NCBI GenBank assembly: GCA_036785375.1
Contig: JAWMAR010000030.1
Coordinates: 6,820,001-6,884,000 of the forward strand
Length of the DNA: 64,000 nt
Direction of reading: 5' to 3'
Origin: Leucoraja ocellata
Taxonomy: Eukaryota
In this document: positions 20,170 through 60,977 of the stretch, one piece after another
Numbering within the stretch: the stretch's first letter is position 1
Layout: every line of letters starts with the position of its first letter
Program-made: the position numbers and the translations under genes
The notes under the pieces: generated by a model
Told to the model about the DNA's origin: nothing
Seen by the model: the letters and a program-made list of their open reading frames with translations, nothing else
Database searches by the model: none

Positions 20170-20890
20170 TAGATGAGATCAGCACAGAAACAGGCACTTT
20201 GGCCCACAATGTTAAATGGATCTCATCTACTTCCACATATCGCTCCATTCCCTGCATTTCCAGAAGCCTCTTAAACATCACGATCGTATCTGCCTCCGTC
20301 ACCACCACAAGGTGTTCCAGGTCCCCACCACTCTGCATATAAAACTGGCCCTGCACATCTCCTTTAAATTTTAGATAGAAACAAAATGCTGGAGTAACTT
20401 AGCGGGACAGGCAGCATCTCTGGATAGAAGGAATGGGCAACTTTTCGGGTCGAGACCCTTCTTCAGACATTAAACGTTCCCCCTCTTCCCATATAGCCAT
20501 GCTCTCCAGTGTTGGACATTTCCAGCCTGAGAGATAGGTTCTGCCTGTCTACCCCATCTATGCCTCTTTATAATGTTATATACTTCTATCACGTCTCCTC
20601 TCAATCTCTGGCATTCCAGAGAAAACAATCCAAGTCTATCCAGCCTCTCCCTGTAGCTGAAACCCTTGAATCCAGACAGCATTCTGGGATGCTGCCTGTC
20701 CCGCTGAGTTACTCCAGCATTTTGTGTCTATCTTCGAGTTTCTATCTTCCTTCCTACTGCATTCTGGTAAACCTCCTCTGCATATTCTCGAAAGCCTCCA
20801 TATCTCTCCTGTAAAAGGGGCGATCAGAGCAGCATGCAATACTCCAAATGCAGCCTAACCAAAGTCCTATAGTCCTAACCAAAGTCCCTT
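20170..20890 (-). mobile_element. CR1-type LINE fragment with two nested Penelope-derived short repeats
   Basis: Translation FKGFSYRERLDRLGLFSLECQRLRGDVIEVYNII. Insertions at 20373-20468 and ~20688-20737. Confidence 0.85.
20373..20468 (-). mobile_element. Penelope pLTR-derived short repeat with minimal hammerhead motif
   Basis: Minus strand: GTCTGAAGAAGGGTCTCGACCCGAAAAGTTGCCC..., i.e. CUGAAGA, stem II GGGU/ACCC and an intact GAAA. Confidence 0.75.
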
Positions 20891-21082
20891 CTGCAACAAG
20901 TGTAAAGGCACATTAATGTTGAGTTGGATCTGAAAGTGCTACATTTCCAAAACCTTTAGGATGTATAAAATGATGCTCACCGCTGTCATTTAGAATATTT
21001 AATGCCAGAATATTTCTCAATTAGAATATGTCCCTGCCCTTCCATAACTGTGATGACTTCACCGGAAAATCATAGGGAATAA

Positions 21083-21500
21083 ATCAAGTCAAGTCCAATT
21101 TATTGGCAAATGCCCAAGTACAGAGGCTGTGGAGGACGTCAATGGTTATTTTTACGGTGCAGATTGATAGATTCTTCATTAGTATGGGACATATGGATTA
21201 TGGGAGAGGGCAGGAGAATGGGGTTTGGAGGAAGAGATAGGTCAGCCATGATTGAATGGGCCAAATGGCCTAATTCTGCTCCTACAACTTATACACCTAT
21301 GATACAATGGAAATCTTGCTTGTAGCAGAATCACAGGCACAGAAACTCGGACAACATACAACATAGAAATTATACAGAAATTATACATAAGCTGCACATA
21401 GAATTTCTGAAGTTACGAGATAAGGTGAAAGTTGTGCGGGTTGGTTCAAGAACCTGATGGTCACAGCCTGAACCTGGTGGTGTGTGACATGAGGCATTGT
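21083..21500 (-). mobile_element. Rex1-like 3' end interrupted by a plus-strand CR1 tail (21121-21295)
   Basis: aagtcaagtccaatttattggc tail. The CR1 3' UTR cagaggctgtggagg...aattctgctcct is nested inside. Confidence 0.55.
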
Positions 21501-22059
21501 GTACAGTCCCTCATACAAGCAGAGAACATTGAGGGAACTCGGGAAGATTGGTCAGTACAAGCCAGTGGTGAGATGCCACAGAGTAACCAATGTAGCATCA
21601 AAAACAGTAGGGTATAACTTAGTTTTAAGTATCTAAAGTGAATGAGACTGCCAACGTATTGATGGCTTCTGAACACTTTATCAATAATATTCATTTATTT
21701 ATATCCAGATTACAGTGCCAAAACAATATGATTTCACTCAATAGTTTCAGATAATTCCAAATATTCAGAGATTCCTTATAGGATGCAGCACAAAGTGGGA
21801 ACTGTACATTTTGAATCAAACAGGCACACCACGTTCAAATTTAAAATAGTTTGGAATCACACCTCATCTAATTAACGAGCTGTTGGCAGGAATAACAAGC
21901 AACAGGATTCCAAAACAAGGAAAAGGAAATCTGGTGAGTGGGGAGTGTTGGATTCAAGTCATCCAAAAAAGCCAGTCCGATGCTAGGGGGCGACTGTCTC
22001 TTACTGTAGCTGGCGGTTTGCAGGCTCCCTTGTTTAACTTTGAAGAATCAAACTTTTGT

Positions 22060-23290
22060 GAGAAATGCAGAGCAAAATACTGCAGCTGAAATGTTAAAGC
22101 AAATACATTAACTGGCAGAAGCACTCAGCAGGTCATGTTGCATCTGGGAGGAGCGGGGCGGGAGGAGTTGCAGACAATATAGCTATGAATGTCTGTGGGT
22201 GTGTTTGCTCATCTATCTTGTGAACGAAGACAGCGTTGATGAGAAGAGAAAGGAAGAGTCAGATATGCTTCATGCTAAAGTTTGTAAAATGGGCAACAAG
22301 GTTAATATTATAGTCTTTTGAGCAGAGGAAGCAACACCAATATAGTTGTCAATGGATAGACAACATGTTGAGGGAGAGGGCCAAAACAGGATGGAAATAG
22401 AACTGTCTCACAGAGCTGAGGAAGAGACAGGAATAGATCAGACCCATGGGAGTTTCCATTGATATACCTGACTCCGAGAATGTGAGTGGAATTGAAGGAA
22501 AAGTTTTTCCATACAAAGAGTTTACTCAGGTGAAACAGAGACATGGTGGAAAGAGAAGTTTGCTTCCATTCAGCAAGAAAGTGAAGGGACCTCAGGTGAT
22601 CCTGGTGGGAGATGAAGTTCCTGAAGGGTTGCATGTCCTGGTGAAAATGAAACTGTTGGTAGGAAAATGTCAAAGTGCTGGAGGATGTCATTGGATAGGA
22701 AAGGTTTGGAGGGATATGGGCCAAATGCAGGCAAATGGGACTAGTGTAGATGGGGCACCTTGGTCAGTATTGAGTTGGGTGAGGGGGCACTTCTCCATGC
22801 TGTATCACTCTATAAGGTACACAGATGTAAGTGGAAAAAAAATAGACAGGCGGGAAGGAATAAAAGCTGAAAAAATACATTCTATGGAGTAAAAGGAGGC
22901 TGGGATAATGAGTCTCCTGGGTCAGCCTGACTTGTGGATTGTGGGACGGAGATAGAAGGGTTGGAGGACTATGAGGCTTAGAGAGGACCTTCTGAGGAAA
23001 TGAGGTTGGTGACCCTCTGGGAGACAATGCCTGATGCTCCATTGTGGGGTCATGGGCCTGTGGGAGATGTGAGGAGGACTTAGAGAATGGGCTTCCAGCT
23101 TCTATGCAAAATGCTACAACACTGCCCTCATAAGGTTTAATGAAGATGTCAGAGTTAGTTGAGGTTTGGAGGAGACTAGGATCCAGTCAGTGTGAGTAAT
23201 AGAAAAGATGAGACAATCTATGTGTCGGTGGTTAACAATGTTTGGATCAGAAGATGAGGAGCCAGAAGAAGGAGTTTGATTGGATTGCTA
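22060..23290 (-). pseudogene. Decayed Penelope-like element (PLE): reverse transcriptase remnant plus 3' pLTR remnant, interrupted by a CR1 tail (22690-22815)
   Basis: Minus translations IHKSG*PRRLIIPA, DMQPFRNFISHQDHLRSLHFL...KNFSFNSTHILGV, ETVLFPSCFGPLPQ and IDNYIGVASS align with recalled PLE RT motifs (KIHK..GRPIVS; MDVQSLYTSIPHQDGL; NNFSFNSTHFLQ..G.AMG; RYIDD). A degenerate pLTR at 22060-22150 lies 3' of the RT. Confidence 0.8.
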
Positions 23291-24464
23291 TTGTTGGAAA
23301 CTGTATAAAGGTTCTACAAAATTGTTGACTTGTTTTGTAACTCTTTCTGGAAATCATTACCATTATAGTGGATTTAAATTATGTACAAGGTTTGAGACTT
23401 TGTTTTAATTTCTGCCAAGGATTACAAGGGTATTACAATCAAGTAAAACATTAGTTGCCAGTAGTGTTGCTAAAACCCTTTGCCGTACGATTATTCTTGC
23501 CATGCATGCACATAAACCACAATACTTATTTTTGCTTCCTCTTTTCCCACTGTGCAGTCTCCTACAGTAACATAGCTGTTCAGAAGCCTTTATGGATTAT
23601 GTATACCGTGTTCTATGACTTTTGATAATTGCTGAACCAGCTACAACTGTTGTTGAGTATTAATCCCCATCAATAAAGAATGTTTGTTTAACATTTATCC
23701 CTGTACTGTACTTGCTTTTCAGAACTGATAAAATATTGAAGAGCCAAAAGATGCTAAAGATCACAATCATATTTTCTTGGTGAAACACCAATTTATTTCT
23801 ACTACTTTCAATGTACTACAATGAACTCACAGTTCAGTGTTGTCTCATCCAGAAAGACCACATGCCAACTGGAACGCTCTGTTCAGTCTGCATGACCTTG
23901 AGATTTCGATTGTTTCTCATTTTATTTCTCATCCGCTCTAACTTCAACCTCCACCGTCGTTTCTTGATCCCAGCAATACATGTAGTCTTTGGCTCCAGAA
24001 GAAACGTGGTTGTGGCTGAAAAGCAAATTGATATAAACAAAAGCACAAAAAGAAAAAAAAAAGCACAAAACGTTGATTAGTTGATAATGAAATCCAAAGA
24101 AACATGCTCCACCATCTGTTGAGTTCAGTAGTGCGTTACTACATTATTACCACAAAATAAAGGGCCCAGCTCACAACCACTGCTGCCCCCGTCCCTGTCT
24201 CTCTCTCCCACAACCTCCTCAAACTCAGTCCCTCCTTCTCACTGCCCCACTCCTTCCAATCCTCCCTTCCAGATCCCCAATCTCCATCATTCACTTCTAA
24301 CCCTTTTCTCTCCCTTTCACATGTACATTACCGCACCCCCCCCCCCAAATTAATCCCCACCCACTCTCTCACCTCCTACCATTTCCAAGCTCAAGAATCT
24401 ACACTCATCATCTCTGACTAGGCACAGCAAGGTGTTCAGCACCCAACACACAGTTCAATGAACG

Positions 24465-24710
24465 AAAAGCACAACGCTTGAACTCAGTGGGTCAAGCAGC
24501 ATCTGAGGGGGCAAAGGGTGTATGTCCATGTTTCAGGTTGAGACCCTGTGTCAGAACTTGGAACGAAGAGGGAAGATTGCCAGTATAAAGCAGTACAAAG
24601 AGGGAGGAGGTGGGTGGGATAGAAATTGCTAGGTGATAAATGGAACCAGATGGGCAGGGGATAAATGGGCAGATGGAGCCAGGTGGGGGAGGGAAGTGAG
24701 ACAGAGATAG
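24465..24710 (-). mobile_element. Penelope 3' end / pLTR fragment
   Basis: Pyrimidine-rich PLE 3' region followed by a degenerate CTGACACAGGGTCTCAACCTGAAAC and atgctgcttgacccactgagtt on minus. Confidence 0.65.
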
Positions 24711-24924
24711 TTGGGTCAGAGACTGGTCGGTTATAACTCAATGATTTCAGGGACACAGCAGGTGCACAATTTCTAACTTCAATTTTCTAGCATCTGTTGT
24801 ATATTTCTTTTGTAACTCCAGTTAATCTTCAAGCCTCTTCCATTGAAACCTGCTCCAGATCAAACTGTATTTTATTTGGCCTATTACCATTGCAATATTA
24901 TCACCTTTATCAATGAATCTCTCC

Positions 24925-25760
24925 TCGTTTGTCATTCCCTCTCAACCACTTTCTCCTGCCTTCACCCCGTAACCCCTGACAACCACACTAATCAAAAATA
25001 TGTCAATCTCCGCCTAAAAAATATCATTGACTAGGCCTCCACAACCTTCTGTGGCAATAAACTCTACAGACTCAGTAAAGAAATTCCTCCTCATCACCTT
25101 TCACAAGGTACGTCCTTTTATTCTGAGGCTACATTCTCTGGTCCTAGACTCTTCCTCTAGTGGAAACATCCTCTCCACATTGAAACATAGAAAATAGGGG
25201 CAGGAGTAGGCCATTCGGCCCTTCGAGCCTGCACCGCCATTCAATATGATCAACTCAGTATCCCGTACCTGCCCTCTCTCCATACCCCCTGATCCCCTTA
25301 GCCACAAGGGCCACATCTAACTCCCTCTTAAATATAGCCAATGAACTGGCCTCAACTGCCTTCTATGGCAAAGAATTCCAGAGATTCACCACTCTCTGTG
25401 TGAAAAATGTTTTCCTCATCTCGGTCCTAAAAGATTTCCCCCTTATCCTTAAACTGTGACCCCTTGTTCTGGACTTCCCCAACATCGGGAACAATCTTCC
25501 TGCATCTAGCCTGTCCAACCCCTTAAGAATTTTGTAAGTAACCATAACAATAACATCCACTCCATACAAGTCTTTCACTATTCAGTAAGTGACAATGTTA
25601 CCCATTCATCGTTCTAAACTCCAGTGAGTGCAGGCCCATCATATGTTAACCCAATCATTCCTGGGATCATTCTCGTAAATCTCCTTTGTATCCTCTCCAA
25701 TGCCGGCACATCCTTCCTCAGATTATGGGGCCTAAAACTGCTCACAGTACTCCAAATGCG
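24925..25760 (-). mobile_element. Older CR1 fragment with a younger HER1/CR1 3' end (25183-25540) nested inside
   Basis: ORFs TYKILKGLDRLDAGRLFPMLGKSRTRGHSLRIRGKSFRTEMRKTFFTQRVVNLWNSLP and VERMFPLEEESRTRECSLRIKGR. Confidence 0.88.
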
Positions 25761-25807
25761 TTCATTGGAGTTTAATCGAGGGCAGTTTAAGACTTTAAAT
25801 ACATTAT

Positions 25808-26116
25808 TTTTAGTTTAGTTTAGAGATACGGCATGGAAACAGGCCCTTCGGCCCACCGGGTCCGTGCCGACCAACAATCCACGCACATTAACACTATCCT
25901 ACTAGGGACAATTTCTACATTTACCAAGCCAATTAGCCTACAAACCTGTACGTCTTTGGAATGTGGGAGGAGACCGAAGATCTTGGAGAAAACCCACGCA
26001 GGTCACAGGGAGAACGTACAAAGATCGTACAGACAGCACCTGTAATCGGGATCGAACGCGGATCTCCGGTGCTGCATTCACAGTAAGGCCGCAACTGTAC
26101 TGCTGCTGCCAGTGTC
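25808..26116 (-). mobile_element. HE1-type SINE
   Basis: (tttag)n tail, V-domain and B-box-like gttcgatccc on minus. Confidence 0.85.
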
Positions 26117-27597
26117 ATTTGTTTAAGAAACTGAATATGTTTGAAACACAAGTCTTTTCTGTCTGATCCAATGACTCCTTCACCCATTTAGTGGCTCATC
26201 ACAGATACTAGCGGCAAAATAATTGCCTCACTCCTGTCCTGATGTATACTACAGTCACCAGAAACACCTTTCACTGCCTCAGGGTTTGCTCTCAGCAATT
26301 TACTGGCGATAATATTTACTTGAACTGTCATCATTCTGGTAAAGTAGGAATCTGAGAAGAGCAGCATCTTAAATATTACATTATTTTTCGCACAAATCAT
26401 CTTTGAAGTTGGCAAATATTGAAAGACACTATGTTATAAACTGAAATTTATTCCCAGACCTGGCAATAATGTATTTTTTCAAATCCTTTGACCTCGTTGA
26501 AGAATGTTAAGAATTTAGAATGTTTTTCAAATATTTATTTATTCCCCCGTTTTTACCTGGATTATTATTTTATTTCTGAAATTAATAACTCCCTATGATA
26601 TCAAGTGTAGCTTTCATACAATGGATAATACAGTGCCACTTTATCTATAATTACTCTGCATGCTTCATCTGGAATTGATGTGTCGAAATGTTCTAATGCA
26701 GACAGTAGCAACCGTTGACATCTATCATTACAGTATTAACTGACTTCTCATTGGTAAGGGTTTTACTCAAGTGTTTATCATACATTTGGCTTTACTAATA
26801 AATGAAGAGGATGCATGTTCTTGAAATCTTTTGCATTCCTTTTATAGGTCTGCATTTTCACTGATCCTTGCAGCTTTTCTCCTTATGCAAATTTGTAACC
26901 ATCTTTGCAATGTCTGAATGAATCCTTTTCCAGAATGTTTGGGCTTTTCTACATAAAGGTACTGTACATTACTGAAGGGACAGATTTTGTGCAGTACATT
27001 GTCTGTAATTGAGAGTCTACACATTCTCTATCGAGATAATGGCTGATGGACTGGAATTCATCAGTAGCTCTTTGTGCCTGGCAACAGGCTCATCATTTGA
27101 CTGAAATAATGGAAACTGCAATAATAAAAGCTTTAATGATTTCCTTTTCAATCGGCTACTTGTTTCCCCAATTCTATTCTACTTGACAAACAAATACTGT
27201 CGTTCTGCTCATTGTTAAAAATTGAGAATAATGTACAGAGATTGTTGAATGCCATCATAAGAGTAGTTTATGCTAATATTATTGCAGAATACCAGATATC
27301 AAAGGCTAATACAGCCGCCCGATAAAACAACACATTCCGAGAGAGAGCTTACAAGGAGAACATGATGATGGTGAAGCTCCGGGTTAGTTTAGATGTGGTG
27401 GGCTGAATAACCTTCTTCTTGATCAGGAAGAGATAGGAGGAACTTGAATTTATTTAACACCTTTAATAGAGCAAAATTCCTCACAGCGATTCATCAGGAC
27501 TTTAAAACAAATTTTAATATGAGGAGAGACTTGAGCAGACATCTAAACACTTGGACAAAGAGAGGGAGAGATAATAAGAGATCTTCTCGAGGAAGAT

Positions 27598-28094
27598 AGA
27601 CAATGGACAATCAGTGCAGGAGTAGGCCATTCGTCCCTTCAAGCCAGCACTGCCATTCAATGTGATCATGGCTGATCATCCCCAATCAGTACCCCATTCC
27701 TGCCTTCTCCCCATATCCCCTGACTCCACTATCTTTAAGAGCCCCATCTAGCTCTCTCTTGAAAGTATCCAGAGAACCGGCCTCCACCGCCCTCTGTGGA
27801 TGAGAATTCCACACTCACAACTCTCTGTGAGAAAAAGTGTTTCCTCATTTCCGTTCTGAATGGCTTACCCTTTATTAAACTGTGGCCCCTGGTTCTGGAC
27901 TCCCCCAACATCGGGAATGTGTTTCCTGCCTCTAGCGTGTCCAAACCCTTAACAATCTTATATGTTTCAATAAGATCCCCTCTCATCCTTCTAAACTCCA
28001 GAGTGTACAAGCCCAGTGCTCCATTCTCTCTGCATATGACAGTCCTGCCATCCCGGGAATTAACCTTGTAAACATTCGCTGCACTCCCTCAATG
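27598..28094 (-). mobile_element. HER1/CR1 LINE 3' end
   Basis: IEGVQRMFTRLIPGMAGLSYAERM / YTLEFRRMRGDLIETYKIVKGLD. Confidence 0.92.
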
Positions 28095-30659
28095 GAGATG
28101 GATGTGAAAATGATAAAGACAATTGAAAGTTGAATTTTAGAACAGCAGGTTTTGGTAGCGAAGAGCATGATTCCATTGTTATAGTGATTACAATGGGAAA
28201 TAATCAAGTGGAGGGGAGATACAGTATTTCCCAGGATTTGTAGCTCCAATGGATAAGAACACCATGGCAGACGCAGTTCCAATTTCCAGTTCAACTGATG
28301 TGCACCAATTTCAGATATGCTGCTTTCCAAGTACCTGACTGCCGTGCTGGACTGAATTATATTTTAAAGTGCATGGTGCATGCAACAACGAGTTGCGTTG
28401 CTCGCTTTCTCATGAGCTATACTGAATTTCTTGAACTGCTCAGACGGGGACGAATGTAATGAATGAAACTCAAGTTAGATGCAGCGAAGAAAGGCTCAGT
28501 GGCCTGGTAAATGCTCATTTCATCAGCTGCTATTAAATCATGTGAGCACATAGCCTTGAGGTGCTCCTGTACTGATTGTTATTGAGGAAGAAGTGTATCT
28601 GCCAATTCTAACATACTGTGGTCTGCTGATGAGGATGTCGGGGATCCAGTTGCAGAGAGATTAGCAGAGACACAGTTCCCTGCTCATCTTTCACATTCAG
28701 TACCTGGGTTCTTCAGCTCCTTGTTTTTGCAAGTGCTCTTCAGCTTGCATTGTTTTTGCCCTATTACATGCTATTTATTAATTTGTTCTCTACGTTTGAT
28801 TCATCGGGCAAAGCTGCCTTTAGTAGTTACCCCTATTTGTAAGCTACTTTCTAATATTTGTTGCTGTTGGGGATTTTTTTGGTGGTTATTGTTGATCATT
28901 CTTCTATCCAGTGGCCTGAGAAGAAATCTACTTATTGTTTGACTGCATGGGACAAATGAACTCCAGGTCCATCAACGAGCAAAACCACAATACATGATAT
29001 AGTCAGGCCTATTTAATTTGAACAATACCCCAGTTCCCTTTACAGCCTCAGCTGTAAATGGTGATGATATTAATGGTGTTACTCTTTTTTTGCATTTCCA
29101 TTTTAAGCCATTCGGAACCTTATCATGACCTTAGACCTCACCAAAACCTGAATTGGCCAGTGTTTTCCTAGTTCACCGTCACCAGCCTTATTCTACAACC
29201 AATAATTAAATACTTCTATTCACCCGCAGTTGAGGTTTAATTTTAGAGTTATCCTGGAATGCCGCCGGTCTATCCCTAATCTCATTAATCCTTCTAACTG
29301 TGTAGCACAACTGTGTGGGGTCACAACTCGGGTTCATTTGCAGGAGGCCTTAAACTGTTCTCTGTCAAAGAGGAAATAGAACATACTCTGCCCAATGTTC
29401 TTGATGCGATCATTACATTTCATTTTGTGACTCTTGTCCTTTGTTCCTCTTGTGGCACATCCCCACACTATAAATAAAATGGCACCCCAGGGTTCTTAAT
29501 TGGCTATGAAATGCTTTAGGGAATTACTATATATACGTGCAACCCCATTTTAGTTTCTGAACCTACACTGCGCTGTGCAAGTGCATCGAATCTATTCATT
29601 GCTAATCAGCGCTGTGGGCAAATTCAGTGGTATTAAAGATTACGAGGCCACATGACCTCTCAAGTCAGAATCTCCATTCAATAGGGTGATGGCTGCTTTG
29701 ATTATAGCCTCAACACTTTTCTGCCTGCTTCTCACAATAAACCAAAAATCTATCTCAGCCTTGGATATCTTCAATGATTCAGCCTTTACAGGTTTTGCGT
29801 TAAGAGAATTATTTTGTGCATTTCTCCTGAATCTGCTTTCACACATAATGACCTTCCTCTGATTATAGTTTTTCTTCTACATTTTGGCTTTTGGTTGACC
29901 AAGTCCTGCTTGGTTTTCCACTCCACTGCCAAATTAGTTCTTAGCCTTGCAAGGATTTTGGACCTGCTCCGTTCAGGTGCAATCATTCAGCTTCTAAAGG
30001 ATCCAATTCTTCAGGAAAGGTCACAGTGATGCCAAAATCTAATGCCCTCCTTATTGCATGCAGTACCTTTTCAATGATGCATCCCTGTGACCTATCATTC
30101 TAGTCCCTCAGCTTCCTGCACTCTGAGAAATAAAGTCCTAGGTTGCCCAATCGCTCCGTTTGGCTCAGGCCCACGACACCTACCTGCACATTGGTGGGTT
30201 TATGTACGAGTTTTAATTCAGAAAGTGGAATTTAAACTGGAACACTGACCTCATCTGCTAATTTCAAACCACCTTGCATTAATTCCTTTCACTTCCCGTC
30301 TGATAACATATTGGTTCGTATTGAAGATTGCGTTGCTAGTTTTGAATAGTTTGAATTATTATGGAGCTTGGGATGAAATTGGAGAAGGCACTGAGTGGGC
30401 AGGGGAATGGTAAGTAAAATGTTTGAACAATATATATCTTACAAAGCTAGTCAGAATTAACAATCAGTTTAGGTGCTTTCTGTTGAAGATTCACAGGATC
30501 AGTGGCCACCTTTGACTGTCTTCACTTTAACCTGGTAACGCTGCGTCTATCATTTTATGTGGTAGATGTATTAAATAAGGGCAGCATGTGTTGCTGAAAA
30601 CACTTTTGGTTTTCATCTTTTCGCACAACAAAGGTAGCTATTGAAACAATACTGTCAGT

Positions 30660-30892
30660 CCCAGAGTGGTGAATCTCTGGAACTCTCTGCCACAGAGGGT
30701 AGTTGAGGCCAGTTTGTTGGCTATATTTAAGAGGGAGTTAGATGTTGCCCTTGTGGCCAAGGGGATCAGGGGGTATGGAGAGAGGCAGGTACGGGATACT
30801 GAGTTGGATGATCAGCCATGATCATATTGAATGGCGGTGCAGGCTTAAAGGGCCGAATGGCCTACTCCTGCACCTAATTTCTATGTTTCTAT
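30660..30892 (+). mobile_element. HER1/CR1 LINE 3' tail
   Basis: cagagtggtgaatctctggaactctctgcc...cctactcctgcacctaatttctatgtttctatg. Confidence 0.88.
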
Positions 30893-31659
30893 GTCCCATT
30901 GCTCCATATTTTTCATATAACCTATTCTCCCTCTCACTTGCCTACACTGATGTTCCTACCACACTGTTACTAATTAGCAACCAACCCGCACTTCTTTGGG
31001 TTGTGAGGGGAAGCTGGAGGATCCAGAGAAAACACATGGTCACAGGGAGAATGTTATCCAGTTTGTGTGGAATTTGCACAAAGTCAGAATTCAACAACAT
31101 CTACTGTGTTGTCCTCTCGTAGATGGGCTGAGGATAAAGTTTTTATCCACTATGTTAAGGTTGGAACATTTATGGTAAAGACAGATCTACATTTGCAAAT
31201 ATTAATTCACTGCCATAAATCAATGATTCACTGCCTGTGGTCATTGTTGTTGTCTCAGCTCATGTAAGAGATCCAGCCAGATGTAGGTGCAACACCATTT
31301 GCCAGTCTGAACGGGGTCATTGCCAGAAATTGTCCATCGATCTAGTTTGACAGCTTTGGATGGACCATGAGATGATGGGAAGGGTTGGGTGGGGAAGAGA
31401 GGGACTCATTGTTCATTTTACCAGGTGCAGAGTGAAGAAACAAATGCATTTTATTTCTTGTGCTTGGTTAAGAATGTTGGCGAGCATTCCACATGTGAGC
31501 GAGATGAATGGGAATTTGTGAGTGAGTCGGAAGCGAGCCGGAAGAAAAATTGAAATTACATTGCTTCAAATGTATCCATGAATAGAATCAGTTGCAGTGG
31601 AGATTTCTGAGTCCCGACTGTTCACACTAATCATGTAATAAGTGCAGAAAACAATAAAT

Positions 31660-34600
31660 TGCTTGGGCAATAGAAATGTAATTTTATTTTAAACTTTCTC
31701 CAATTAATGCATCAAGCTGAGAGCAACATGCTGAGAAGTAGCTCAGGTAAACAAACTAAATAGATAGACAAAACCTCCATGCTGCTGATTCCATATCTTT
31801 CAATGTCATACGGAATTCAATTTGAATACATTTAAACATCTAAATCTTTCCATCACCCACAGTGTATTTTCTTGAATTGTGTATTCTTCATAATACAATT
31901 AAGGAACGCTTGCTTTAAAGAATATGATGGTTGCAGTTCCTATTTGGATACATAACCGTGTTGTTAAAGGAAACCTTGCATTTGCATGACATATTATGTC
32001 TCCTGGAATACACTGCAAAGAACTTTGCAGTCTCTGAAGGTACTGTTTGTGGCCAGCAAAATGTCGCAACTTTGGGGGAGAATGTTTTCTCAGTACACGG
32101 TATAAGTCAAGTAGTGCCGCACCTATAAATGGAGCACTGCCTTGGTTCATTTGTACAGGTGTCAGGAATGCAGTCATTTAGGGATGATTCCCAGATGAAT
32201 CAAACTTGGCAGCAAAGTTTAGGGAATGATAAAGTGCACACATAAAATGCTGCAAATCATGTCAGTGCCTGGTCAGAAAGAAACTGTCTCTCTTCATTTG
32301 GGGATTAACAGTTTGTCATTTTAGCAAATGCTATGGAAGGCTTTATTTAGTAGTTTTGCTACAAACAGCAAAGTTGTTTTCCTGAGGCTTAGTCATATTG
32401 TCATCTTAACAAATTCTTAGTTGGTTTTAAATCATGGCTTTGAAATGGAGACCAAGGTGGCTTGAGTTTGCCGTATATTAAGCATTCACACAAATTAAGA
32501 CTAGTAGGAGCACATGAGTAACAACCTTTTTATTCATGTCCCCAGCCCAAGATTAGACCTGGATTTCAGTTTCCATTCCAGGGAAGACTGAACATGTCAA
32601 AATGTGCAACACAGTTGACAAACTAAATATTGCCAGATTCCTGACTAGAACAGGAGCCACCAGCTGGGAGTTTTTATTATAACAGTGAGGCACAATATTA
32701 CTGTGCAATGCAAACAGCACTTACCACCTAAAGCAACAAGAACGATTGCAGCAAACTGTTAAATCCTACTTCTGACTTGGTGCCGCGTACTCAGTATAGG
32801 CACAACTCTCCGACACATAGATCATTTAAAGTGCAACTGCTCATTAATTTAATCTATTATGTAGCTCCACAGATTTAGTCAATAATTAACTTTGCATATA
32901 CATTAAGTGAACTGTCTGAACCTCATTTCATCATTACAACTGCAAATATTGCACTTAGACACAGCAGCCCGCTTGATACAGAATTGATTATAATTAGCAA
33001 CTTATAAATCAACAAGGACCTGGGCAAAATGCAATTGAACAATTCACGAACACCCGTAATGATTATGTATATATGTTATGAACGAACTTGCATTTATGAT
33101 GTATTAAATATCTGAGGTTACTGCAATACTACAAGGAACAGGAGGAGTGATTATAGTGTGATAGGTTTACACAGGCAGTTCCCGCTACAAATATGGATAT
33201 TGGAATTTGTATGGAAATACAATGTTATGAACTGAATATGAAACAATATGATCCATATGAAGTAAATGAGGACCAGGTTTCTGACAATGCATCCCTAACT
33301 AAGTAAATCTCCTCTAAACTCCCTGTGTCAAATGTTATAAGACATTGAGTCATGTTAATATTAACTTGGGAATGTAACAATTTGACAGCATTGTGCATTG
33401 ACCACTGTTGTTTACACACACCGAGAACATCGGTGCAGTTCCATGTGATAAATGATGACATTTTAACAAGATCTCTATTGCTGTACCTCCCAGTTTCATT
33501 TTACATTTGCTTCATACATTTAGATAAACACTAAATTGGAGGAGAATCCAGGGATTCTATAATAAATGCTGAAAAATGCAGAAGCTCATGCTGATACAGG
33601 CTGAATGGGCTACTTCCAGGAATAGAAATATCTGACTTTAAATTCAGATATTTGTACTTTGGAATACTGTTATAAACAAAAATGAACAATGTGCTGGCTA
33701 TGCAGAGTTTGTACATTCTCTCTGCTTCACATGGGTTCTTCCAATGGTCTGGTTTCAACTTACATTTCACAAAAGGTGAAGTGGCTACTGTAAATGACTC
33801 TGTATACGGGTTGGTGGACATTAGAGAGAGAAAAGATTACGGGGAAATAAGTGGGCGAATAGTAATGATAGGATTGCATGGACGACGGGCCAAATGGCTT
33901 CCTCTGCCTCGTTGTGCAAAATTATTTTAAACATATCAAAACGTGGTCCAAACCAGCAAAATATTTATGCATGACAAAATGTGGGGAGGGACAGGAAAGA
34001 GTTTGTTTAAATTCAAAGTCAAGTATTGCTTCAATGAGTCAGACTCAGGAACCGACATATTGGGATGGGGGAGGTTGGTCGAGATTTCCTGCCTCCAATT
34101 TGTCAGTGTCTAACCAGAGGGAGCAAAAGACAGTGACCATGTTACAATAATAGGGGTAGCTTCCCTCCATTTGCATGGACCAAATTTTCACAAGGATTTG
34201 ACAATAAAAGCCAAGAGAAATCTCACTCAACTCTCCTCCACCTCATCTCACCTCGGAACCTGAAGTACGTGATGGACTTGTACATTCAGATGGACAGCTA
34301 CTTGGAATAATTTTATGTGGAATTCTCTGTGACAGCCCCTGAACAATATGTAAAATCTAGCCTAAAGGTAACTCCAGATTCTGCCTTTCTATCCTGCACT
34401 GGTAAATGTATTTAACTGTTTGAGGCTGAGGTCAAAGGTTTCATCTTATTTCTGGCAGTGAGGGTGATATAAACATTCCAAGTGTATGCCAGCTGTAGCA
34501 ATTGCATGCACGCAATCTGGAATGATAAAGTTAACTCTTATTGAAAAGTGATGACCAGTTGCCATCTCAGGGGGTAGTCATAGCATCAACTTAAATTTGG

Positions 34601-45273: not shown

Positions 45274-45398
45274 TAGTGTAGGGGGGAACTGTAGATGCAG
45301 ATTTACACTGATAATGCTGGAGTAACACAGCAGGACAGGCAGCATCTCTGGATAGAAGGGAATGGATGACTTTTTGGGTCGAGACCCTTCTTCAGATT
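45274..45398 (-). mobile_element. Penelope-derived hammerhead-motif repeat inserted in a plus-strand CR1 fragment, 10-bp TSD
   Basis: Flanked by GGTAGTTGAG at 45264-45273 and 45399-45408. Minus strand begins ATCTGAAGAAGGGTCTCGACCCAAAAAGTCATCC. Confidence 0.8.
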
Positions 45399-46411: not shown

Positions 46412-46605
46412 NNNNNNNNNNNNNNNNNNNNNNNNNNNNNNNNNNNNNNNNNNNNNNNNNNNNNNNNNNNNNNNNNNNNNNNNNNNNNNNNNNNNNNNNN
46501 NNNNNNNNNNNNNNNNNNNNNNNNNNNNNNNNNNNNNNNNNNNNNNNNNNNNNNNNNNNNNNNNNNNNNNNNNNNNNNNNNNNNNNNNNNNNNNNNNNNN
46601 NNNNN
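46412..46605. other. Assembly gap (194 N)
   Basis: Run of N followed by a G-tract. Confidence 1.
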
Positions 46606-49607: not shown

Positions 49608-49731
49608 TGTGTAGGAAGGAACTGCAGATGCTGGTTTATAAATACAAATTGCTGGAGTAACTCAGCGGGACAGGCAGCATCACTGGAGAAAAGGAATGTA
49701 TGTCGTTTTGGGTCGAGCCCCTTCTTCGGTC
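49608..49731 (-). mobile_element. Penelope-derived hammerhead-motif repeat (degenerate core)
   Basis: Minus: GACCGAAGAAGGGGCTCGACCCAAAACGAC...GATGCTGCCTGTCCCGCTGAGTTACTCCAGC...GCAGTTCCTTCCTACACA. Confidence 0.78.
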
Positions 49732-52154
49732 TCATTTGCTCTCAAATCTATCTCATTTGCTTGTCTTCACACTGTTGCAAAGCCATTTTTCACAGTGATG
49801 TTAAGATCTGGTTATACAATGTTACGTTATGGACCTGCTGAGCCATGTTATTGCCCACAGACAATTGCAGCGTATATATGCAAGTGTATGTTATACATGA
49901 GCACACAGAAATCAGCCAGAATTTCATCAATCACTGACCACACAAGTTTACGCATGCATGGTTTTACCACTCGTGCAGCATGCAATCAGCGGGGATTATT
50001 TTGTGTTATACCATACCACACTTTATCATAGAAGTAATGGACAACATCCTCAATTCCTTGCACCAGCCAATGAAAAGGGAGAGACAAAGAAAGACAAGGA
50101 CATGGGCAGTGACATCACAAACAATGAACTGCATTTATTAGAGTATTTGACAATGCCTCAGTTGAAAGGAAATTTAACTTTATAACTAGAGGGTTTCAAT
50201 TTTGTAAGCAACATTTTCATCAAGGATGTACATTATAAACAGACCACAGAGGCTGTACTGTCTAGTATATACCGGTGTATAAGTTCTCCATGCAATGAAG
50301 TGTTGAGTGTACAGATGTTTCCATGTATTGTACAGCTGAGTACACAGAACTCTTTGTTTGACAGTTAAATAGGCACAATATAGTATTTAAAGTTTCTGTA
50401 CAAGGGTTTCTTCCTACAGTAATATAACACTTTACATATACACTACTGTTTCCTAATTTATTGCTTAATTTACAAGCTCCCCTGTGTAATCTACTACTTA
50501 TACTGAACTTTCCATCTGTATCGTGTTCTATTGATATAAAGTCTCCTGGCAATGTATTTAATGCACCATCCTCCTGTAATCATTCTTAATTCAGTAAATA
50601 GCTTCACTGCAGAATGTAATAACAGTTCCACACTGTCCAGGAGATTGCAATATGATCATGGTGTCATTATTATTACCTGTAATTTACAATAAACATTGTT
50701 AACAATGCAATTAATGTCATTAGTCTTCTACCTTCAACCATTGTGTTGGTGCATCCAATATGTTACCATCTCATTAAACTGTGCCTTAAGGATATTTTTT
50801 TTTTAAGATGACATTAAATTCATTATTGAAATTAGTGATCTTATTTCAAATGAAACATTGAGGTGGTAACAGCCAATTACAAATATGGTCCACTATAACA
50901 ATGACCAATATCACAAACTTGATAACTCTAAAATTGAGATAGAGGTCGCAAAACGTTATGACGACTGTTCTCACGCCACCAAGTTTGTGTATTCCTCTAA
51001 ACAGCATTTCTTCACAGAAGTTCATTTTAATATCTAGTTGACTTCTCTTAAATTAACAATTGATCATCGATTATTTTCATTCTCTTCCCATTTTTTTTTT
51101 GTACAAATTGTAGCCACAAGGTTGTGGGTACTTGGACTACAATGCAAGTAAATTGTACCGAATGACTGGCTAAAGACATGTTGTGTTTGAAGAAAACCCT
51201 CATTTTGAATTTCCACTTCAATTGGCATATAAAGCCCAGAAACATTCTCTATTGGCTTCCTAGTAATAATTTCTGTTACCGATATAATCTTTGTTTATGT
51301 ATCAAGTCACTGTAGTCATCTCGCAAAGGGTTATCTTTACAACAAGCTGAAGATAAAATATTGAACCAAAAACAAGGCAAAATCATCTACCAATCTTTCA
51401 CTTCAACTAAATATTATCATATCCCTCAAGAGGCAATCAAGCATTTCACACTTCAATTGTTTTCAAGTGCTAGATAGCCAAATCTGGTGGCTGCTTTGTT
51501 CCCAGCAAGCCACAATGAATTGGAAGAGAAAACAACAATTAGAACACAGTTTTTTAAAATAGTTTTTATGGTTTCTGATCAGCTTATCCTAATCTGCTTA
51601 ATTTTGCCACATCAAGATAATGCCAGAAAGACGAGGATTTTAACAGCAGATATTGTCCAGTGCCTTCCCTTCTCAAAATTAATCTAATTGACAGGTATGA
51701 GTTTTGTTTATACTGATGCTACATTTAAATGGATAGCTCCAGTAAGTTGGATAAAACAGAGAAATGAGGGAATATCTGATTACCAAAGCGGTACCACCAG
51801 GCACAAGGCAAGCTATCACTTTGTAGCTGCTGATCACTGGATAACAGGTAAACACAACAGAGAAACTGCATGACTGCAGACAGATTTTGCCACCATTTTG
51901 TAAAAATGAACAAGGTGACATTGGAAACACCACAGAGAAGATTCATAAGGATGTCTGCAGTGTAAAGAGAACATTGCTGCTAGAACAGCCTATAAATAAT
52001 GTTTTTTAAACTCCAGAAAGTAGATGGCTGAGTCTAGCTGATTGGATAGAGGTCTTAAAATATCTCCACGCAAAACAAAATTATCAATGATTGCAACTTC
52101 GCCAAAGTTATTTGTTCCTATGAAAGTCCAAGCATTTTTATCTTCAGCACAATG

Positions 52155-52360
52155 GAGATACAAGAAACCGCAGATGTTGGAATCTTGAGCAAAACAGAAA
52201 TGCTGGAGGAATTCAGCGATCAGGCAGCATGTGGAGGGAATGGACAGACAATGTTTCGTGTTGGGTCTGAAGAAAGATCCTAATCTTAAATGTCGCTTGT
52301 CCATTCCCTCCACAGTTGTTGCCTGGCAAGCTGAGTTCATCCAGCATTTTGTATTTTGCT
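52155..52360. mobile_element. Inverted pair of Penelope pLTR-derived repeats
   Basis: Left arm aatgctggaggaattcagc...gtggagggaatggaca mirrors the right arm tgtccattccctccac...gctgagttcatccagcatt. The right arm starts GGGTCTGAAGAAAG. Confidence 0.72.
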
Positions 52361-52778
52361 CTATTCAGCACTTCAGGCTGGATTTACATATTGATTATTA
52401 CCTCAATTCTGAGCAAATGGCACTGTTCAACTGCTAGCCTTGCCATGTTAGCCATGCAGAAAATAGGTGTCAGAAAGTAATACTTTTTGGTGAATAAGAT
52501 TGTGCTGGAAACGGAAAAGTTAAAACTTATTTAAAAAATATGAAATGTGAAGTTACATTACTGTTCAGAATCTGTGTTTCTGTCATAAATATAAACGCTT
52601 AAAGAGTGCTAAGATATGTATGGCCTCAGAGGGAGGAAAATGCATTTTGTGATAGCGATAAATTCGCTTTCAGTTAATTGAAGTGCAGTGACCAATATGT
52701 TTGTGTGGAAATCCGCGGAAAGTCTGTGCGAGATCCTGATCACTGATCTTCACCATAATAATGTAAAGGCAACCAATC

Positions 52779-52831: not shown

Positions 52832-53085
52832 AAAGGCAACCAATCAACCAAACAAAAACAAACCAAAACCGTTCTGCCTGTATGAATTGACAAAATCTCC
52901 ATCTATTTGGGTATTTAAAAACCTTGTTTATATGCACTCACCCTGTATTTTGTTTCCATTTTATTTCTGTCAACATTTAACAATGGAACTGCAATCGTAA
53001 GATAAAAGTGCAAGGTCCCGGCCTTCAGCTGATGCTTTCAAAGTCGACTACCATTTTGTTTATTGACAACTAACGGCGATTACAT

Positions 53086-53220
53086 TGTGTACGAAGGAAC
53101 TGCAGATGTTGGTTTATACCGAAGATTGACATAAAATGCTGGAGTAACTCAGCGGGTCCGGCAACATCTCTGGATAAAAGGAATAAGTGACCATTCAGGT
53201 CGGAATCTTTCTTCAGACCC
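53086..53220 (-). mobile_element. Penelope-derived hammerhead-motif repeat (degenerate core)
   Basis: Minus: GGGTCTGAAGAAAGATTCCGACCTGAATGGTCACTT...GCAGTTCCTTCGTACACA. Confidence 0.78.
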
Positions 53221-55895: not shown

Positions 55896-58800
55896 TATAA
55901 TATATATATCTGTTTGGAAAAAAATGCTCTGTTGGCATTCAGGATTTTAAAAACATTAATTTGCCTTTCAATAGTTTAACAATTTAACATGAGTGGACAT
56001 TACATTTTTTGATGAGATTAGCTAACCAAAGTTTAACTTTGCTGAAATTGGAAATTTCTGTAGAATTAAATTAGATTTTCAGTCACCTATGCAATTCAGA
56101 GATTATAACAACAAACTATTTATTATTTGTTGGATAGAAAAAAAAGGTTAACATAAATTTATATGAATATATATATATATCTATCTGCATGGCTACATAT
56201 CAGCTAGTTGCCTTGAAGTTTGATACATCAAAATTTTGCTTAGATGTCAGTCAAGTTGCTTCATGAGTTTTCTTTTTGCAGTGAAGATTTCTACTAGTTT
56301 GGTTTTATTCTTGAGATTTTTTTTTCTTTGGAAGGAAGTGATTCATAGTAATGTAAATGTCAATAATTCATGTGATAGGGACCATTGTACATTTAAACAT
56401 CATATTAAATGGAATTGTCGCCAGCTCTCTTAAGGCAATGTAATTCATGTGGCCCAGCCAGGATTACCATATTCCAAAAGCAAAATGATGAGCAGAGCAA
56501 TGAAAGGTCATTGACCTGAAGCAGTTTCTCTGTGTCTGCATATGCCACAAGTGCACTGAATTTGTAAGCTTGCAAGTGCGATTCCAAAAATAGGTGCAAG
56601 TGTAGGAAAAGACACTTGCAATGACAAAGAGCCAATTCTCCTGCTGGTTATGCCTACAGTATATTCATATAAACCATTAATTCATAGAATCTGGATATCA
56701 AAAGATTTAGACACTCAGCAAGTTTCGCAGCATTTGAGAAAAGAAAAGCAGTCATCATTTTAAATCGAGCCCTTGAAAACATTCACTCTGTTTTATTGTG
56801 CCTGACTTGCTAGCATTTCATAATTTTATGTCAGATTTCTGCTATCTTCAGTTTTTATTTTTGAAAATTGGTGCCCATGTTTAGAGCATATAAGCATTTC
56901 ACAAATTATAATCATACATTCAGCTGAAAGCCACACACCAGATTAGTTAAGTAAACCACTATTCCCTTCCCTGATGTTGTTATATCATTGTGTAAATGAT
57001 CTATACTTACTCAGTCCCAAATGCTTTATCATCTACAACTATAAATTACCATGCGTATTAAATTTGGGTTAGATTGTATATGCTATTTTTTGGATTCTAA
57101 AGCATATTGTCCTATCTGATTATATTGCAAATAACAGACAACCCCTTGGGCATAGTTTAGAAAACTCCTTACTATAACACGTGGCAGCATTTCCCAAACC
57201 CATCACCTCTACTGTCAAGAAGGAAAGGACAGCAATTGCTTGGAAATATCACCACCGGCATATTATTCTACTAATCATACAGAGCATCATTCTGGTTTGG
57301 AATTATAGCACCGTTTCTCGTCCCAATTAAGTCAAAATCTGACAAAAAAACAACCCAGTGGGAATATTTTCACGGCAGCCCCTGCCCAATAGCTCAGTCC
57401 CTGTTTTACAAAGGCATTGGAATGAGAAACATCCATATCCCAAGAAAAAGCAATAAATGAACGATTTAGCACCCTATACACAACTATAAAGGCAAGAGAA
57501 AATTCCTGTATTAATCACTTAACATACTGATTGTTCCAAAGTATTTATGACCAGTACAAAACCAGTAACAAATGATCTGAAATATATGTTCTTAAATATT
57601 CAGAGTATGCTGGTAAAAATAGGCATTAAACATTAAAAAAAACAGTTGTGTGCGTGTGGTTAAAAGAAAAACTTGCTTGGCATCCTTCACATTAACCCAA
57701 AGTTAGATAGTTTCAATTCCATCGTTCCATCAATCCAACATAGAAAACCTTTGTTGCACTAACCCTCATACTGATGTTGAGCTCTTGAATTCCAAATACA
57801 AATTACTTCTTTGATTAACTACAAATACTTAATGATTACAGGTTACTCATTGGGAACTGACAAAACCAAATTCCACTTGCTACACCAGATGCAGCATTGT
57901 AACATGGATCACTGCCATGAAATAAATTGAAATGTTAGAACTCAATATAGTTTGGAAAGTTGATTCCGCATTGTGAACATCTTCACGACCGATTATGACA
58001 GTCGGTTATGAACAATGCAATTCATCACCATGTATTAGGCAGGCGGCTGCGAAGGTCTAACTTGCGTGGAGCTGTAATCAAATGTTTTTATATTTGTTGT
58101 TAAAAATGGATATTACAAGAAGCACAACAATCCTCCCCAGTCTCCAATGTTCCCTGAGAAGGTGATGGCTTAAGTTCTAGGATCTCTGGAGGCTTTTTGT
58201 GGAAAGTACACCCAATATACTATTGGATGTGGAGTTCCTGTATTTAAACTGAAATAATTAGATGGAAATGCTTTTGATCACATGCTTCTCTCAAGTACCA
58301 CCAGCTTTATAAAATGCATTCACAGATTCTTCAAACTTGCGAACTAATGCCAATTTAAGTAGTCAGAATAATAGACCACTGAAGAAGACCCTTCAATCCA
58401 TCATGTCAATTCATCGAGGACCCATCTATACTAATCATATTTATTAGCATTTAATTTGTAGCGTTGTATGCCTTGTTGATTCACGTGCTCATCCTGATTG
58501 AAGGAGTCCAAGAAATTGGTGAAAATGAGTAAGGCAATTAGTGAGATTGAGTAAGGCAGAGTCCAGTAATTAGTGTTATTCCCTGCACTTTTCTTGAAGT
58601 TGTTCATACTCACTATATCTCTGGATGGACAAAGTTCAGTGATTCAGGGAGCAGCTCTTTGGCCACAGGGAGGAGATCGTTGAGGTGGATCCTGGCGATG
58701 ACCTTTCAAGTGGCAGATAGCAGGGAGGCTCCTCGACAGTTACTGCATTAAGACTGATCTACTTACATGAAAAGACATCCATGTTCATCTCTCAGGATTA

Positions 58801-59929
58801 TCCTCTTCGCTGATGAGTGATCGCTACATTAAGTGAAGCTTTTTCACTGAAACAAATGAGTGGAAGGTCTCATACTTAACATCCACAAGACACTCTATCA
58901 ACATGCCCCTATTGCTCCACACTACCTTGCAGATGATGGGACTTGGAAAATTGACTTTCCTCTTCTCAGGAGTCACCTCTCAACAGAAGCAGACACCGAT
59001 GATGGAATTCACAGCTGCTTTGATGTGTTGCCACAGACTTTGGTCACACAGGAAAGAGTTATTGAGCGATTGAGCGGTTATTGAGGTGTGATAAATGTCA
59101 TGTAAGCTGCAGTGTTCTCTCCCTTACTATGTGGATCTTCTATGACTCCCATTATGGCCTTATCAGTCTTCTTGGAACACACAGAACAAGAGTAAATGTC
59201 AATCCAGTAGAACAACGTGAGAAAAAGATTCCCAACCAAAAATCTACTGCTTGTTAAATCAGAGCTCATGAATCATGAAACGACAGTGGCAACACTGGCA
59301 TTACTCATGTAATGGGTGACATTGTGACCTCTATTAAGTATGCCAAGTCCCTATCAGAATAAACCTTCTGTGACAAACACAGGGTTTCTACAATTAGCTA
59401 TACCATATATGCTGTTTACAGTTCCACTCCTACTATAGGTGCACAAAATGTCGACATCCTGCCATTAGATTTGTACATCTCATTGTGCACCGTTAGATAT
59501 TCTACCCATTAATTATAGTGCCTCTCCTGTTAGACACACTGTCAGTCAGTGTCTTTCCTATAAGATACATTGCCAATCACACCGTCTTTCCCATTGGCAA
59601 GTGTCTTTCAATCAAAGCTTCTCTTATTAGCTAAAGCTACTTTTAATCACGGAATGTCTATTCTTCCACAGATAAAAGTCAAGATAAGTGACACAGAGTG
59701 CAGAAAGAATAACTCACTTGCACCTTTCTTTTTTTTTTGAGTAAGATGCCCAGTGAGTTTTCACAGAAGAATTAGGAGACAAAGACCAACAATGAGTAAA
59801 GAAGATACTGCAGGGATGAAGATGAAGAGATAAAAAGGAGGGAGAGGATGACAAAGCTAAGAGTTTTGCACTGTAAGCATGGTAGGCGGCAAATTGACAA
59901 GATGGGAATGTATGGTTCTGGGGCTGGAG

Positions 59930-60402
59930 ACAATAAATCAATGAATGAATGAATAAGTTTATACCAGAGCAAAAGGAGGCTACAGATTTTTGGTTATTGA
60001 GTAGAGCAACTACTCGTAGAAAAAAGCTGTTTTTATGTCTGGTTGTGGCAGCTTTGACAGTCCGGAGTCTCATTCCAGAGGGAAACGATTCAAATAGTTT
60101 GTGGCCAAGGTGAGAGGGGTCAGAGATGATCTTGACCACTTGCTTCCTGGTCCTTGCAGTGTACAGTTCGTCAATGGAGGGAAGGTTGCAGCCAATAACC
60201 TTCTCAGCTGATCGGATGATTCGCTGCAGCCTCCGTGTGTCGTGCTTGGTGGCTGAGCCAAACCAGGCCATGATGGAGAAGGTGAGGACAGACTCTACGA
60301 TGGCCCTACAGAAATCGACCATCATTGCCTGTGGTAGGTTGTGCTTCCTCAGCTGCCGCAGGAAATACATCCTCTGTTGTGCCTTTTTGACTGTCGAAGG
60401 AA
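59930..60402 (-). mobile_element. Rex1/Babar non-LTR retrotransposon, RT C-terminal fragment plus 3' tail
   Basis: KKAQQRMYFLRQLRKHNLPQAMMVDFCRAIVESVLTFSIMAWFG...LQRIIRSAEKVIG.NLPSI...DPSHLGHKLF..FPSG.RLR...TTRHKNSFF, the typical Rex1 C-terminal region, followed by a (ttca)n tail. Confidence 0.9.
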
Positions 60403-60871
60403 TCCGAAGATGAATTTTGTACAGAGATGGTTGTATCACATAATCATAGAAAAGTACAGCATGGAAACCGACCCTTACAATCCACAGCCCACTTGTCCAT
60501 GCCATGTCCCTCTACTGCTTACCTATCCAAAGAGCAGAGAAACAAAAGCAGATGTATGCCCTCCAGCTGACTCAAACCTGGAACTGTGTTGCATGATAAA
60601 TAGGAAACAAATTGGATGTGTTTATTGAAAGTGGGGACTAGGAGGCCAAACAAGAACAAGTTAGACTAGTCGTGACTGGGGATAACTAGATGGAGAGGTA
60701 GATGATGAAGGACATTTCTGATAAAGGATATGGACTAATAACTAACTTCAGGATACAGCAGTAAGATCTCACAGTACTACTTGGTTAGAGAGAGTTGCCC
60801 AGGGTGGACGTGCATTCACAGTGGATGATAGATTCTATAGCACCTAGCTACAGAACAAATAAATTATAACA

Positions 60872-60977
60872 GGTACACAAAAATGCTGGAGAAACTCAGC
60901 GGGTGCAGCAGCATCTATGGAGCGAAGGAAATAGGCGACGTTTTGGGTCGAAACCCTTCTTCAGACTGAGACAGACT
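60872..60977 (-). mobile_element. Penelope-derived hammerhead-motif repeat with 15-bp TSD
   Basis: AAATAAATTATAACA at 60857-60871 and 60978-60992. Minus core CAGTCTGAAGAAGGGTTTCGACCCAAAACGTCGCC. Confidence 0.85.

Follow-up and report, generated by a model that had tools for sequence, protein, structure and literature searches.

What are the short, hammerhead-bearing repeats that are scattered through the genome of the cartilaginous fish Leucoraja ocellata? We address this question for a 64,000-nt stretch of its contig JAWMAR010000030.1 (positions 6,820,001 to 6,884,000; hereafter the window), in which a first-pass annotation of the letters had recognized a family of repeats with a minimal hammerhead ribozyme motif and had proposed that they are retrozyme-like, non-autonomous elements mobilized by a Penelope-like element (PLE). 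We suggest that the repeats carry a minimal type I hammerhead and that they are most likely the 5'-truncated 3' ends, i.e. the pseudo-long terminal repeat (pseudo-LTR) plus an optional tail, of a Neptune-type PLE, which were inserted singly or as inverted pairs and are now decaying.

Results

The repeats form an abundant family that moved as discrete insertions

The five dispersed copies of the first-pass annotation, referred to here as copies a to e, are all present at the places listed for them; all lie on the minus strand and their pairwise likeness is 78-90% (Table 1). A profile built from these five copies matched 13 places in the 64-kb window at E < 1e-6 and 22 at E <= 1. With the five weakest profile matches left out, the family set comprises 17 pieces, that is the five named copies and about 12 more. 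Additional copies noted earlier at 2040, 17230, 52155 and 24465 likewise belong to the family, with the refinement that the first three are head-to-head inverted pairs and that the fourth is a longer copy, which extends about 160 nt further 5'.

The exact target-site duplications (TSDs) of copies b and e, 10 and 15 bp long, agree with those reported originally; at random loci with comparable flanks, a flanking repeat of at least 10 bp was found in 2 of 1,500 cases. Altogether, TSDs of 7-15 bp bound 5 of the 14 units examined and support the view that the repeats moved as discrete insertions. As TSDs longer than 4 bp are also a retrozyme trait, they are not specific. Beside the oldest inverted pair, a 12-bp direct repeat (1995-2006 / 2346-2357) lies 20-30 bases outside the ends drawn in Table 1, and the true unit may be larger.

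Table 1. Family members and the associated reverse transcriptase (RT) remnant in the window. Positions given with a sign are counted relative to C3 of the hammerhead core.
Feature	Coordinates	Strand	Description	TSD
Copy a	20373..20468	-	Hammerhead and body, short 3' end (+94); C3 at 20466; predicted cut between 20439/20438	None found in flanks
Copy b	45274..45398	-	Hammerhead with G12A, body, tail (3' end +122); start -3	10 bp, exact, 45264-45273 / 45399-45408
Copy c	49608..49731	-	Decayed hammerhead (G12A, U16.1A, stem II broken), body, tail	None found in flanks
Copy d	53086..53220	-	Decayed hammerhead, body, longest tail (3' end +131); start about -4	None found in flanks
Copy e	60872..60977	-	UUCG-loop subfamily, G12A, short 3' end (+93); start -13	15 bp, exact, 60857-60871 / 60978-60992
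Head-to-head inverted pair	52152..52364	.	Tailed left arm starts +17, right arm about -4	8 bp, at 52143/52364
Head-to-head inverted pair	17225..17400	.	Tailed left arm starts at core, right arm +43	7 bp, exact (9/10), at 17217 and 17398
Older head-to-head inverted pair	2039..2325	.	Both arms start near core	None abutting its ends
Copy without hammerhead	20688..20758	+	Starts +49; 46/46 letters equal to majority	9 bp, 20679-20687 / 20759-20767
Older, longer copy	24460..24720	-	Decayed hammerhead (24520-24555) and about 160 nt of pyrimidine-rich upstream sequence	
Short 3' fragment	10045..10072	-	Starts +62; profile match	
Short 3' fragment	15029..15049	+	Starts +72; profile match	
Highly decayed copy	56709..56774	-	Starts near core; profile E 0.02	
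Neptune-like RT remnant, putative	22070..23200 (RT about 22230-23200)	-	Decayed, frameshifted; then family body 22070-22150; C-terminal GIY-YIG endonuclease and hammerhead part missing	

Outside the window, the repeats are real and very abundant. Four public runs of related organisms, three of contigs and one of raw RNA (polyA-selected, seemingly unstranded, 6% of the run read), were aligned to copy a at 80% likeness. The contig runs gave 76,463, 97,990 and 56,565 aligned contigs, numbers that are not copy numbers, and 13,281 of 7.3 million RNA reads matched. The consensus given in the first-pass annotation is the majority sequence both in the 13,281 RNA reads and in the 56,565-97,990 contigs of each run, and copy a equals the majority in 90 of its 96 letters. 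As expected for animal DNA, the consensus patterns had no match in viral, metagenome and prokaryotic collections. At least three subfamilies can be told apart in reads at 20420-20437: their letters diverge directly behind the cut site and in the loop of stem II (CUCG, UUCG, CCCG), yet the core and the 5' edge are common to all.

The family core has the layout of a minimal type I hammerhead

In contigs and RNA reads alike, the majority letters spell CUGAAGA followed by one additional A, a stem II of 4 bp capped by a 4-base loop, then GAAA, CG and UC. These letters match the published consensus of the minimal hammerhead ribozymes (min-HHRs) of PLEs in order and spacing: (i) CUGANGA is followed by one extra base before helix II, (ii) helix II has 4 bp and is closed by G10.1-C11.1, and (iii) GAAA, the palindromic 15.2-16.2 and the NUH triplet are present. 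The layout of a minimal type I hammerhead, as originally read from five copies, is thus supported by the majority of the family.

Within the window, a strict hammerhead descriptor matches only once, in copy a at 20466, and finds nothing in 12 shuffles; when one mismatch is allowed there are seven sites, four of which are family copies, versus a shuffle mean of 2. Copy a keeps every conserved core base (CUGANGA, GAAA and the GUU site) and has lost only palindrome base 15.2, and the initial impression that no single copy has a fully intact core has to be corrected in this respect. Among about 6,500 RNA reads, and counting the best 40 of 48 differences, C17 is present in 83% and C15.2 in 79%, with G12A, C11.1U and G16.2A at 18%, 12% and 11%, respectively. 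The common core variants lie at CpG pairs, as expected for decay after insertion. Across eight copies, stem II is paired in 30 of 32 cells versus 22-48% for slid partners over both helices. Stem I is paired in 61% of its cells and reaches up to 4 bp in copies starting GGGU; published rows reach down to 2 bp.

Four lines of evidence argue against the motif. First, an Rfam scan of the window gave seven matches at E <= 5, none of them a hammerhead. Second, the covariation of stem II is not above that of shuffles, 84 of 500 of which reach the observed score. Third, stem I has only 2 bp in the young subfamily. Fourth, the predicted fold of the majority-letter monomer pairs the core with a downstream pyrimidine run and lies 5.6 kcal/mol below the best hammerhead-compatible fold. 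From these data it could be argued that the likeness is incidental and that the 3' end of a short retroposon just happens to hold CUGANGA and GAAA. Given that every element of the published consensus is found in order and spacing, that the strict descriptor has its match in the window and not in the shuffles, that stem II is paired far beyond slid partners, and that independent Penelope hallmarks are present (see below), we find an incidental likeness hardly credible.

Folding z-scores are below -3 for one of five monomer copies and near 0 for the others. The min-HHRs described so far show no activity in monomer form and little as dimers, and the hammerhead of the anole element needs the protein of the element (PMC11167929). 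The ribozyme described here is predicted to be silent as a monomer and to cut, if at all, only as a dimer or together with the protein of the element. In the young subfamily (20425-20468, minus strand), folding predictions pair the first 11 bases, with which the core starts, with a run of pyrimidines that follows 35-45 nt further on; the base of this predicted hairpin coincides with the common 5' edge.

Tails, inverted pairs and variable truncation point to a Penelope-like element

According to published studies, most min-HHR motifs are single copies of truncated PLEs (PMC4209133), and insertions of endonuclease-containing (EN+) PLEs show strong 5' truncation, an optional 30-40-bp tail and an adjacent inverted, 5'-truncated copy (PMC8557442), together with 8-10-bp TSDs (PMC3846280). 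The family in the window has corresponding features. First, the 3' ends fall into two classes, +93/+94 (copies e and a) and +122 to +131 (copies b, c and d), which lie 28-38 nt apart and fit the optional tail; the tail is also visible as a loose end in reads. Second, the three head-to-head inverted pairs, two of which have TSDs, fit the adjacent inverted copy of PLEs (PMC8557442, PMC3846280), and in each of the three contig runs the joint with the best support among those listed links opposite strands (34, 34 and 20 contigs). Third, the 5' starts of the 17 pieces range from about -160 to +72. Five of these pieces start downstream of the start of the core, at +17 to +72, and one of the five (20688) has a TSD of its own and no hammerhead. 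At the other extreme, the upstream segment of the 24460 copy is joined to the body in at least 14 of 575, at least 8 of 629 and at least 2 of 386 contigs (among 15 of 24 matches listed) and is reached by none of 54 RNA reads. Together with the motif, these hallmarks support a Penelope origin of the repeats, in line with the original proposal.

A candidate relative of the parent lies in the window itself. In the three frames of the minus strand at 22.2-23.2 kb, nine colinear fragments match by eye the RT of Neptune1_Ap/Neptune1_Ac, including the DKG box, the KIHK/RP region, the LYT, FSF, AMG and IDD motifs and the ISE region. Three matches to this RT in a representative search were discarded, all being tandem-repeat proteins. 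A different high-copy repeat is inserted in the remnant at 22692-22805 and is found again at 8274-8390, 44013-44075 and 45450-45502. The earlier suggestion that the repeats were mobilized by a PLE like the decayed one at 22-23 kb would fit an RT remnant that seems to end in the family body; for this link, the protein was matched by eye, and the match at the DNA level is weak (E 0.0095). On these sequence likenesses, a Neptune-type parent is probable.

Several findings speak against the proposed descent. (i) The DNA match of the family body that follows the RT remnant covers 29/36 letters. (ii) The RT at 22-23 kb was not confirmed by Pfam (six read-through frames), homologue searches, Atlas or PDB. 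(iii) Compared to the five young copies, both the longer copy and the RT remnant come from an older subfamily. (iv) The upstream sequence of the young copies is seen only as a blurred, 30-letter loose end. (v) The RNA stems from a related organism, with the library properties given above. (vi) The 5' ends are less scattered than plain truncation predicts. In total, we still regard truncated PLE ends as the likely nature of the repeats.

The hammerhead does not set the ends of the unit

The defining traits of non-LTR retrozymes are an arrangement in tandem, with a hammerhead in every unit, and the release of linear and circular monomer RNAs at the cut site (PMC7229834; Li 2026, bioRxiv 10.64898/2026.07.22.740005). 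If the family were of this kind, tandem arrays would be transcribed and cut by dimeric hammerheads, the monomers would be circularized and reinserted, and the dispersed copies would be their offspring. The intact core of the family and the length of the TSDs are compatible with this scheme, and retrozymes with solo monomers are reported in one chondrichthyan (Li 2026). A few go-back joints of the kind expected for tandems also exist, in at least 25 of 76,463, at least 17 of 97,990 and at least 13 of 56,565 contigs among the joints listed (with 124 more), counting being incomplete for two runs and contigs collapsing arrays. However, these joints amount to 0.02-0.03% of the aligned contigs, they are at single-copy depth (472 over 14 contigs) and have no RNA reads among the joints listed, and the 64-kb window holds no tandem array of the unit.

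The position of the cut site argues further against a retrozyme. The copies start 2-13 nt before C3/CUGA and the cut site lies inside the unit at +28, at a distance of 28-40 nt from its start, so that cleavage cannot have made the 5' ends of the copies. Moreover, the hammerhead is minimal and not canonical. Nor does the polyA RNA contain a place with many molecule ends, at the cut site or elsewhere, with the reservation that a polyA library would miss circles; the 5' ends for which the first-pass annotation had suggested a search at the cut site are absent from this RNA. The depth across the site is 6,488 versus 6,584 reads, without a step. A drop in RNA depth at 20437/20438 was considered as a sign of cleavage and rejected, as it is clipping at copy a's own mismatches and 944 loose ends continue through the site. 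The two strands receive RNA mates in equal numbers, as would fit either an unstranded library or transcripts of host genes that read through the repeats.

We conclude that the ribozyme does not set the ends of the unit and that a retrozyme is a very improbable explanation of the family. The rarity of tandems, the start of the unit away from the cut site, the lack of RNA ends and the existence of shorter, longer and inverted forms all speak against the separate, retrozyme-like element that had been proposed. That the short copies are non-autonomous is correct in the trivial sense that each is non-coding, whereas a role as masters is improbable.

Most copies stop at the front edge of the hammerhead

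Of the 17 pieces, six have a clean start at the motif's front edge, namely copies a to e and the right arm at 52265; as many as four others start there loosely. With 7-8 of 17 starts in a 15-nt slot of 90 nt, clustering has a P of 0.015-0.003 under a null that is uniform over 90 nt and was chosen by us, five of the copies having been picked in the first-pass annotation. Beyond 20468, the loose ends of aligned contigs have 3-4 letters in common, after which their agreement is only 0.33-0.37, compared to 0.52-0.58 where copies run on into common sequence; contigs over-count unique flanks at the edge. RNA reads show the same edge, and a G-run marks a minority that runs on upstream. The low agreement of the loose ends implies that one common edge terminates most copies, a pattern not expected from plain random truncation. 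No transcription start is visible at the edge in the polyA RNA. These data support a preferred 5' start. The defined unit boundary about 2-12 nt upstream of CUGA that was postulated originally is a strong tendency (6-10 of 17) and not a rule, as the five pieces starting at +17 to +72 illustrate.

A fixed edge and an excess of short copies would be explained if the family were a self-standing, short interspersed element (SINE)-like element, in which one or a few masters of about 135 nt, derived from a pseudo-LTR, are transcribed and copied in trans by a Penelope protein. The sharp edge in contigs and reads, the TSD-bounded copies that start at -3 and -13, and the several subfamilies with the same edge are all in accordance with such masters. 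The upstream segment is also far thinner than the body (summed depth 363-1,350 versus about 25,000-35,000 in one run), although this contrast is confounded by the divergence of the old copy. Against masters, longer and shorter forms exist, the common G-run in the upstream loose end of the RNA indicates that some copies continue into common sequence, and a tRNA-like head was found neither by ARAGORN nor by Rfam. Given this balance, a SINE-like element is improbable as an account of the family, and short master elements are unlikely as the cause of the edge.

Three other causes of the edge were examined and rejected. A splice acceptor, with a pyrimidine tract and an AG before helix I as in the intron of D. 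virilis, would not leave the AG and a few bases upstream, which are kept in the loose-end consensus and in copy e. For cleavage, the cut site lies 28 nt too far inside. Simple fold-back priming, considered for a joint between 20424 and 20468, is unsupported, given that 20424 is also the point at which a subfamily diverges.

Two published systems bear on the edge. Transcription of D. virilis Penelope begins within the pseudo-LTR, a short way upstream of the hammerhead. The anole element copies uncleaved RNA and does so from two internal sites, which follow the hammerhead region at a distance of about 110-150 nt (PMC11167929). On this analogy, we tentatively favor the model that the edge is made by run-off from an RNA that starts there. 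A stall of the copying enzyme, either at a fold or at an upstream pyrimidine/poly-C tract, is a conceivable, if somewhat unlikely, alternative cause.

Other features of the window

Two open frames on the minus strand lie apart from the family. The first (35934-36893) has 319 codons, is Ser/Pro/Lys-rich and stop-ended, has no Pfam match and looks like the long last exon of a host gene. The second (59714-60511) has 265 codons and matches Pfam ALKBH8_N at E 9.5e-14; it is probably the C-terminal part of a young long interspersed element (LINE) of the L2/Rex type and not a host gene. A near-perfect 86-nt inverted repeat at 19097-19182 has a weak mir-135 score (32.9 bits, cut-off 59.2) and is more likely a small foldback DNA element. 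An assembly gap of 194 N lies at about 46410-46604 beside a G-rich tandem repeat.

Discussion

The kind of repeat described here is already known: minimal hammerheads in dispersed, truncated Penelope copies, thousands per genome, were described in 2014 (PMC4209133). The min-HHRs of that study (Cervera and De la Pena 2014) and the family have in common CUGANGA, an extra base between 9 and 10.1, G10.1-C11.1 and GAAA as well as the palindromic 15.2-16.2 without loop 3, NUH and a putative short helix I, and the core letters of the family majority recur in the Takifugu and Ixodes rows. The similarity extends to genomic arrangement: that study describes single motifs scattered by the thousands, along with pairs on opposite strands at distances of 100-700 bp, and ascribes them to truncated PLEs. 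The family differs in its helix II, which has 4 bp versus 7-8 bp in the Schistosoma and fugu examples, and in the 2-bp helix I of its young subfamily. In the part of the paper available to us, the alignment has no cartilaginous-fish row and a 5' edge at helix I is not described. Likewise, our literature search found no paper on this cartilaginous-fish family or on such an edge, most subscription papers and repeat databases lying outside the search.

Insertions of EN+ PLEs of the Neptune clade (Craig 2021, PMC8557442; Arkhipova 2013, PMC3846280) resemble the family in their high 5' truncation, tail, inverted truncated copy, 8-10-bp TSDs and solo pseudo-LTRs, and it is the RT motifs of Neptune1_Ap (PMC8557442) that match the remnant in the window by eye. 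Unlike in these elements, the truncation point of the family clusters at the front edge of the hammerhead, and the window contains neither an endonuclease nor a full-length copy. The element PAc (Poseidon, Anolis carolinensis; Frangieh 2024, PMC11167929) offers a parallel for the copying step: its tail is bounded by a pair of internal sites at which the RT starts, some 110-150 nt downstream of the hammerhead, uncleaved RNA is the template and, as here, RNA-seq shows no ends at the cut site. PAc belongs to another clade and its open reading frame starts inside stem II, and a fixed 5' edge is not stated in the part of that study at our disposal. Non-LTR retrozymes (Cervera 2020, PMC7229834; Li 2026, bioRxiv 10.64898/2026.07.22.740005) share with the family the non-coding character, a type I hammerhead, the relation to pseudo-LTRs, solo monomers and TSDs longer than 4 bp; they have tandem units with linear and circular monomer RNAs, whereas the family has few tandems, a minimal hammerhead and unit ends that do not coincide with the cut site.

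Combining the structure of the copies with the published data, we infer the following copying steps and, with them, a reason for the edge: (i) an RT-endonuclease would nick AT-rich DNA and start copying an uncleaved RNA, (ii) copying would begin at one of two internal sites, about 93 or 120-130 nt downstream of C3, and in that way give rise to short or tailed 3' ends, and (iii) copying would pass the cut site and the core and very often end 2-6 nt before CUGA. Two internal RT start sites have been demonstrated in vitro for the anole element (PMC11167929). The edge would then mark the point at which an RNA transcribed from the pseudo-LTR promoter begins, and the short copies would be run-off products. 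As a possibility that we put forward with caution, the tens of thousands of short copies may accordingly resemble "strong-stop" products, made when reverse transcription sets out from the internal tail sites and reaches the end of its template, an RNA beginning at helix I, so that each pseudo-LTR promoter would launch a SINE-like mini-element without ribozyme cleavage.

If this run-off model is correct, the genome would document, with base precision and in high number, the start points of Penelope RNA and of its copying as well as the way in which inverted pairs arise, and the hammerhead would be a passenger that is held off by an alternative hairpin with its base at the same edge. How Penelope elements finish copying and what their hammerhead does are questions of interest. 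A family that combines numerous copies with two 3' ends, a sharp 5' edge and frequent inversions would allow these steps to be counted on one genome.

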